Shown one piece after another: positions 21,673 through 21,874 of a DNA stretch of 64,000 bases. The DNA is from Eledone cirrhosa (Eukaryota). Location: positions 151,590,001-151,654,000 of the forward strand of contig OZ024742.1 of the NCBI GenBank assembly GCA_964016885.1. The letters run 5' to 3'. The notes beneath the pieces are model-generated. The model ran no database searches. It saw only the letters and a program-made list of their open reading frames with translations, and was not told where the DNA came from. The position numbers were made by a program, and so were the translations under genes. Within the stretch, counting starts at the first letter, position 1. Every line of letters begins with the position of its first letter.

Positions 21673-21874
21673 AACGAAGGAAATGTGGTAAGGAACCAGG
21701 TGGACCATAACGCACCAAAGTACTCAATACTTGAGGTAGTAGAGTGGGTAATAGGAACCAGTAAGACCCCGACAGCTGAGCTCAAGCCGTTTCGACGGCT
21801 AATTCTGGACTGGAGTCCAGAATTAGCCGTCGAAACGGCTTGAGCTCAGCTGTCGGGGTCTTACTGGTTCCTAT
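21673..21874. mobile_element. pLTR 3' fragment ending in a perfect 61-bp-arm hairpin (21751-21874) with HHR 3' halves
   Basis: The arms are perfect with a 2-nt loop. The half-HHR reads gaaa cggc ttgagctca gctg tc ggggtc. It is the same family as 55709-55905. Confidence 0.8.

Follow-up and report, generated by a model that had tools for sequence, protein, structure and literature searches.

Head-to-head pLTR hairpins of Penelope-like elements in Eledone cirrhosa: axes at a predicted RNA 5′ end

Endonuclease-bearing Penelope-like elements (PLEs) are described, in the available text of PMC8557442, as units with a pLTR, an inverted 5′-truncated copy, a tail on one side only and microsatellite targets; the head-to-head shape of PLE insertions is already published there, and the same text states that the way in which the inverted repeats form was not settled. 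In vitro, the Poseidon protein PAc of Anolis cleaves the two strands of its target and extends both; synthesis begins at a pair of internal RNA sites, and the distance between them equals the tail, according to the portion of PMC11167929 on which we rely. PLE promoters are placed within the pLTR (PMC2377424 and PMC3846280, in the text available of each), and the Penelope element of D. virilis is reported to be TATA-less (PMC2377424, same text). Paired hammerhead motifs on opposite strands are noted in the accessible part of PMC4209133. Here, we follow up an initial annotation of 64,000 nt of the Eledone cirrhosa genome (GCA_964016885.1, contig OZ024742.1, positions 151,590,001 to 151,654,000; the whole stretch is called the window), which had proposed that nascent cDNA snaps back on hammerhead stem II and thereby primes the second strand of inverted pLTRs.

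Hairpins of the window and their parent elements

All four hairpins described in the initial annotation are present as inverted repeats, and each sits within (TA)n (Table 1). As it had stated, those at 21754 and 55711 are a single family in opposite orientations (83.8% over 198 nt), those at 24399 and 58190 are related to each other (68.6% over 159 nt), and the axes lie about 18 to 23 nt upstream of GAAA. The hammerhead 3′ half (GAAA-stem III-UH) that it had assigned to both arms of each hairpin is found on every arm but one, an arm of the 24399 cassette that reads CAAA. Its statement that the 5′ CUGANGA half is absent was mistaken for family 2, given the cores on both arms of the 58190 cassette and the TGATGA that the 24399 cassette keeps. 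A strict motif scan of the window found no complete type I hammerhead motif, and the 150 of 216 Rfam matches listed for the window include no hammerhead and only miRNA-like matches to the hairpins. In Table 1 and below, position 0 is the A at which the arms stop, picked by eye from junction data in families 1 to 3.

Table 1. Head-to-head cassettes of the window, in window coordinates; signed positions are relative to position 0
Feature	Positions	Strand	Axis	Inverted repeat (arm identity)	Content
Family 1 cassette, tailed arm	21674..21811	-			pLTR positions 0..+140, (TA)n end; mapped on full-length copy L061
Family 1 cassette, 2-nt junction filler, head-to-head	21812..21813	.	21812.5	21754-21871 (98.3%)	
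Family 1 cassette, tail-less arm	21814..21874	+			Positions 0..+60; stem II 3′ strand, GAAA 21832, stem III with palindromic loop, stem I 3′ strand; predicted cleavage after 21854
Family 1 (subfamily B) cassette	55711..55902	+	55766.5	55711-55822 (85.7%)	Tail-less arm (-) from +6; tailed arm (+) from +1 to +140
Old cassette related to family 2	24399..24591	.	24495	24399-24591 (79.4%)	Right arm begins in core (TGATGA, +7); left arm near stem II start (by eye)
Family 2 cassette	58190..58370	+	58249	58190-58308 (87.4%)	Axis in stem I 5′ strand; tail on + arm, end approximate; core CTGATGA 58253-58259 (+), CTGATTA 58239-58245 (-); GAAA 58272
Family 3 cassette (control), same architecture	23509..23938	+	23704.5		Axis at own predicted start site

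The hairpins are pLTR fragments of PLEs from two families, and the reading of them as PLE pieces with hammerhead halves was right: the layout of endonuclease-bearing PLEs, with a pLTR, partial tandems, an inverted copy and a one-sided tail, is present. In one family 1 copy (L061) and two family 2 copies (L158 and L145) an ORF with DKT and YRDD motifs, recognized by eye, directly follows the tail. Longer homologues number 27, at 35 to 45% identity, 10 of them with PF26215; three PLE ORF pieces gave no direct Pfam match, and a PDB sequence search was uninformative. Upstream of the family 1 3′ UTR, two loci (L060 and L033) carry a VIYQC...YIGLT segment (by eye; no profile match) and a CNC-x5-CPL-x3-C linker, a motif that suggests a clade for family 1 that is only Neptune/Nematis-like. 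Family 3 is followed by a long ORF, with no recognized RT in the stretch examined and an upstream YIG segment at one locus (L191); families 3 and 4 are putative PLEs, placed there by their architecture. The cassettes are inverted pairs without part of the ribozyme and not the tandem whole-hammerhead units by which non-LTR retrozymes are recognized. Elsewhere in the genome, one family 1 derivative (L031, G000:C2:356029877-356031779) is retrozyme-like, being a 299-nt tandem array in which 8 units follow one another and the hammerhead is whole but shortened; it and a second rearranged derivative (L002) both have a deletion that ends at or next to position 0.

Exact tight patterns matched at least 10,458 family 1 palindromes genome-wide and at least 3,036 family 2 palindromes in which the core is kept on both arms; the reversed-pattern controls gave 0 in both cases, so the hairpin numbers are far above chance. 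The exact 39-nt family 1 tail motif has 5,268 genomic occurrences and a family 2 motif 7,385, and 5,682 matches are family 1 copies that read through position 0.

The window holds further elements of this kind. An open 861-aa PLE ORF (12513-15098, +; 34% identity to a family 1 homologue) has a 3′ UTR that occupies 15100-16373 and 20442-21399, an inverted copy lies at 10760-12274, and the segments 10658-12484, 12513-15098 and 19800-21399 together make up a near-complete element with large inverted repeats. Inserted in that 3′ UTR is an open 1155-aa ORF (16382-19849, +) with DKSG, YVDD and YIGET motifs (by eye) and a long in-frame asparagine-rich insert, like those of A. vaga Penelope elements in the accessible text of PMC3846280. 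Inverted arms at 6053-6341 and 6585-6873 are 100% identical, flank an (AT)n spacer and contain another U3-A8 hammerhead-like motif (by eye). Inverted-repeat cassettes of other families, some of them resembling PLE ends, lie at 7911-8093, 2380-3060, 3607-4431, 4801-5261, 9946-10585 and 25761-25832, and a single copy of another CUGAUGA-bearing repeat family, which forms head-to-head pairs elsewhere (L027, L116), lies at 55437-55497 (+). The remaining repeats are LINE-type RT fragments (Pfam RVT_1) at 32118-32858 and 36536-37441 (+), a 47-bp tandem array at 51317-51929, and dispersed SINE-like repeats at 1007-1268, 26007, 51020-52447 and 55537.

Where the axes fall

To locate the axes, copies were sampled by an exact tail motif, a choice that is blind to the junction and biased to young copies, at the first loci listed on one contig (90 regions for family 1, 70 for family 2 and 50 for family 3). 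The family 1 mapping, from which copies with less than 350 nt of flank or a junction gap above 60 nt were dropped, comprised 88 copies, 66 of them inverted, and a simpler arm extension agrees with it (93 copies, 68 inverted). The furthest-reaching arm end fell within -4..+6 in 52 of 66 family 1, 28 of 37 family 2 and 14 of 22 family 3 cassettes, and within -30..-5 in 1, 1 and 0 of these, respectively. The sharp axis peak expected in the initial annotation is thus seen, whereas the identical loop sequence expected with it is not: 60 of the 66 family 1 junctions have distinct strings, as do 34 of 37 in family 2 and 18 of 22 in family 3, with short overlaps or fillers. Because the junction strings are nearly all different, the cassettes are independent events, as had been claimed.

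In family 1, the 3′ end of the tail-less arm is fixed at +61/+62 in 66 of 66 cassettes (as aligned into the TA flank) and that of the tailed arm is at about +141, the two lying 77 to 80 nt apart. Single copies end at the tail-less arm's 3′ site too, which indicates that it is a genuine cDNA start site. Non-inverted family 2 copies adjoin (AT)n at -4..0 in 390 matches, with at least 71 distinct loci among the first 100, compared with 36 matches from 27 loci (complete list) at an internal control site. Since non-inverted copies also stop at position 0, the stop belongs to the template and not to the inversion.

Full-length family 1 copies do contain the 5′ half and a long stem II spanning the axis, as had been anticipated. 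They carry a whole type I hammerhead of the U3-A8 variant with the core UUGAGAA, whose predicted fold has the three stems but scores no better than that of shuffled sequences (z -0.12). In family 2, CUGAUGA, GAAAC and a stem I of 6 bp are present, and the constrained fold lacks stems II and III. Relative to position 0, the hammerhead core starts at -43 in family 1, placing the axis on the stem II 3′ strand, and at +6 in family 2, so that there the axis coincides with the base that opens stem I; families 3 and 4 have a degenerate core, at +43 and at about +35, respectively. In the window, the 58190 cassette pivots within stem I, 4 nt before its core, and the axis of the family 3 cassette is 43 nt upstream of a degenerate hammerhead-like core. 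The claim that the axis falls in stem II in all four cassettes holds for the two of family 1, on the 3′ strand and with the natural loop and 5′ strand absent, and fails for the 24399 and 58190 cassettes. Position 0 falls in stem II in family 1 only because the predicted promoter of that family sits inside its ribozyme. In the pLTR of the full-length family 1 copy (L061 1399-1460), the predicted TATA box is part of the stem II 5′ strand, an overlap of promoter and ribozyme.

The location of position 0 relative to the ribozyme differs family by family, whereas its spacing from a TATA-like box is common to four. Such a box lies 28 to 33 nt upstream of a YR start in families 1 to 4 and not in three minor families; the TATA-like 8-mer is at -29 in family 1 (one mismatch), -30 in family 2 (perfect), -32 in family 3 and -32/-30 in family 4. 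In family 2 it is the sole perfect match in 296 nt and is accompanied by a CCAAT at -84. The chance of a one-mismatch match in a 6-nt window is 0.024, 0.114, 0.037 and 0.145 for families 1 to 4, values that are post hoc in families 1 to 3, where position 0 had been set by eye, family 4 having been checked once the idea had formed. Judged by eye on few copies, the TATA-like box is clear in 4, weak in 1 and absent in 3 of the 8 families for which a read-through copy was available. From these sequence motifs, position 0 is likely the Pol II transcription start of the PLE RNA. Family 1 transcripts from position 0 would be without the 5′ half and unable to self-cleave in cis, and a family 2 transcript would start with a whole ribozyme, its predicted start being the first base of stem I.

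A capped RNA end would be expected to add a G at -1. In hand counts of single copies, G stands at -1 in 14 of 68 for family 1, 36 of 71 for family 2, 12 of 70 for family 4 and 7 of 27 for the internal control; with the element's own C set aside, the hand counts are 36 of 56 in family 2 against 7 of 11 at the control. We do not take this G as proof of a capped end, since it occurs at the internal control too and imperfect (AT)n targets can supply a G. Among the cassettes, 8 of the 10 filler-bearing arms of family 1 have a G at -1, which is suggestive and may be templated fill.

A second, smaller class of axes lies at the ribozyme cut, predicted to follow +40 in family 1. Among the internal positions of that family, arm ends are most frequent at +41 (6 of 132), with both arms ending there in 3 cassettes, and 303 family 1 palindromes have a short centre near the predicted cut. 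Sorted by hand, the first 50 of these comprise 28 whose two arms are both at +41..+43 (filler is present in 17 and missing from 11), 5 that have a single arm at +41..+43, 13 centred on the palindromic loop of stem III and 4 others, which extrapolates to about 170 family 1 cassettes in the cut-site class; CG microhomology could account for the 11 that are filler-less. Family 2 has no clear peak at its own predicted cleavage site, the positions +42..+45 accounting for 3 of 74 arm ends. From the junction peak at +41 we infer that the family 1 hammerhead may cut in vivo, and the ribozyme appears to set the axis in this small family 1 class, at the predicted cleavage site. The proposal that the ribozyme determines the inversion point is retained to this extent; it does not extend to stem II or to the hairpins in general.

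A proposed two-cDNA origin and the competing explanations

The hairpins are best explained, with a probability that we put at roughly 70%, by two cDNAs that would each run off the 5′ end of the RNA and then be joined. The two cDNAs would be primed on both nicked strands of the (TA)n target, start at two internal RNA sites and copy the same short stretch of one PLE RNA near its 5′ end. Both would run off that 5′ end, which would be the predicted Pol II start or, in a minority, the predicted hammerhead cut, and the cDNA ends would be linked in head-to-head orientation, either through end-joining with microhomology or filler or through a template jump. Longer read-through copies, including the 5,682 family 1 matches, may come from the downstream pLTR of the same transcript. 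The joining step is what we infer from the junctions, and priming of both target strands on RNA is proposed by analogy with the lizard element PAc, for which it was demonstrated in vitro. A fuller statement of this model has somewhat better than even odds in our judgment: inverted pLTRs would be twin "strong-stop" cDNAs made by a dimeric PLE protein from two internal sites, every junction would be an RNA 5′ end, the major class would map the transcription start, and the minor class would record in vivo cleavage by a U3-A8 hammerhead.

Of the two arms, the tail-less one has the further 5′ reach in 25 of 66 family 1, 22 of 37 family 2 and 9 of 22 family 3 cassettes. Snap-back synthesis copies the tailed cDNA, so that a tail-less arm cannot reach further 5′ than its template, and these 56 of 125 cassettes contradict it. 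Short-read contigs give a similar picture: in 11 of the 15 joints listed, the tailed arm is strongly shortened and its tail-less partner begins at -1..+5, the joints coming from one of two runs that carry the family, runs that are possibly the assembly's own sample. In family 2, the loop variant is common to both arms in 27 of 28 cassettes, compared with an expected fraction of 0.37, which points to one RNA or one source locus for both arms, as snap-back would likewise predict. Private variants in the arms of 46 family 1 cassettes were uninformative, the 3 shared calls all coming from one junction artefact.

An unlikely alternative is that a single cDNA extends to the RNA 5′ end and self-primes there at microhomology, or on an antisense template as set out in the available text of PMC3846280, with later deletions at the centre producing the asymmetry. 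The concordance of the arms in 27 of 28 cassettes would follow directly, and the geometry of hairpin self-priming is fit strictly by 13 of 125 cassettes and loosely by 38. Palindrome centres are also prone to deletion. Against self-priming stand the 56 cassettes with the longer tail-less arm and a further 31 of 125 that would need a loop of less than 3 nt. Moreover, shortening in family 2 is biased to the tailed arm (22 versus 10), a choice that later deletion should not make, and the tail-less 3′ site is a genuine cDNA start, since single copies end there.

About as improbable is twin priming on a longer RNA in which position 0 is a strong pause caused by an RNA fold or a bound protein. The predicted folds of families 1 and 2 show base pairing at position 0, thousands of family 1 copies do pass this point, and the G at -1 occurs likewise at the internal control, all of which a pause would accommodate. 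However, the four families have no common structure at position 0, which is mid-stem, at the start of stem I, weakly paired or unpaired, whereas they do share the TATA spacing, and read-through copies are also expected from a downstream pLTR of the same transcript.

It is very unlikely that position 0 is instead a 3′ splice site and that the arms were copied from RNA that had been spliced or partly processed. In families 1 to 5, the A at position 0 belongs to a YAG, as at a 3′ splice site (YAG at 0/+1), the sequence upstream is pyrimidine-rich in families 1, 2 and 5, and an intron of D. virilis is described as ending at the 5′ end of helix I, like position 0 of family 2 (PMC4209133, in the text available). 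A constant upstream exon or leader is nevertheless missing from the junctions, nearly all of which are distinct, and a lariat stop would be expected 20 to 40 nt upstream, where arms are depleted.

The original proposal, in which nascent cDNA snaps back on hammerhead stem II, is refuted as a general rule. Family 1 axes do fall within the long stem II, and the arms do come from one source. However, the natural loop and 5′ strand are missing at the junctions, as the single family 1 case in 66 within -30..-5 attests, and a genome-wide pattern built on the two loop variants that are most frequent gave 3 matches that keep the natural stem II loop, all of them ordinary head-to-head joins, and no fold-back on that loop, to be set against the 10,458 palindromes. 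In family 2 the axis lies in stem I and 3,036 cassettes have the core on each arm, the axes of families 3 and 4 are far from the core, and the strict hairpin geometry is confined to the 13 cassettes noted above. Stem II does not set the hairpin axis. Last, an assembly artefact or a single MITE-like hairpin master with an inherited axis can be dismissed, even though (TA)n palindromes are difficult to assemble (available text of PMC8557442) and one junction type recurs among the best matches, given that the junctions are nearly all different, that old cassettes have diverged arms, and that short-read contigs of two runs carry the family, with the joints of one run (possibly the assembly's own sample) at the same point.

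Comparison with known systems

If the axis is the RNA 5′ end, as the two-cDNA model holds, the inverted structure would follow directly from the two-site, two-strand priming seen in vitro. The promoters of any PLE family could then be mapped from genome sequence alone, the cut-site class would be rare in vivo evidence for the activity of a minimal animal hammerhead, and the tens of thousands of MITE-like hairpins in this genome would be dead-end products of retrotransposition. A search of the accessible literature found no statement that the junction marks a start or cleavage site, and the accessible text of a retrozyme preprint (10.64898/2026.07.22.740005) and of PMC13282606 contains nothing on junctions.

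The units of Craig et al. 2021 (PMC8557442, available text) share with those described here the inverted copy at the 5′ end, a tail on one arm, (TA)n targets and a pLTR hammerhead. There, the inverted copy is 5′-truncated by an undefined mechanism, as far as that text goes, whereas here the truncation is fixed at the predicted start site; the tails are about 77 to 80 nt in families 1 and 2, compared with 30 to 40 in those units. The head-to-head junction palindromes of Adineta vaga Penelope, and the TATA and Inr-like motif in its pLTR, are likewise shared (Arkhipova et al. 2013, PMC3846280, available text). In that account the palindromes arise by self-priming on an antisense template and the junction is not tied to a start site, whereas the geometry here opposes self-priming.

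Family 1 has several features in common with the minimal hammerheads of PLEs described by Cervera and De la Pena 2014 (PMC4209133, available text), namely the U3-A8 variant, a short stem I, a palindromic loop 3, and a long stem II in which a base close to the 5′ end is bulged; that text presents those hammerheads without evidence of in vivo cleavage or an analysis of junctions. PAc (Frangieh et al. 2024, PMC11167929, available text) shares an AT-rich target and a pair of internal start sites, close to the beginning of the ORF, by which the tail is defined, while the inverted junction is left unexplained in that text and no RNA reads are reported at the cleavage site. Unlike in PAc, genomic junctions here mark both the predicted start and the predicted cleavage sites. 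In the twin priming of LINE-1 that Ostertag and Kazazian reportedly described in 2001, both target strands are said to prime on one RNA and the cDNAs to be joined with microhomology. The LINE-1 cDNAs copy different parts of the RNA, giving an inversion with a deletion, whereas the two cDNAs proposed here would copy the same 5′-proximal stretch and thus give a palindrome.
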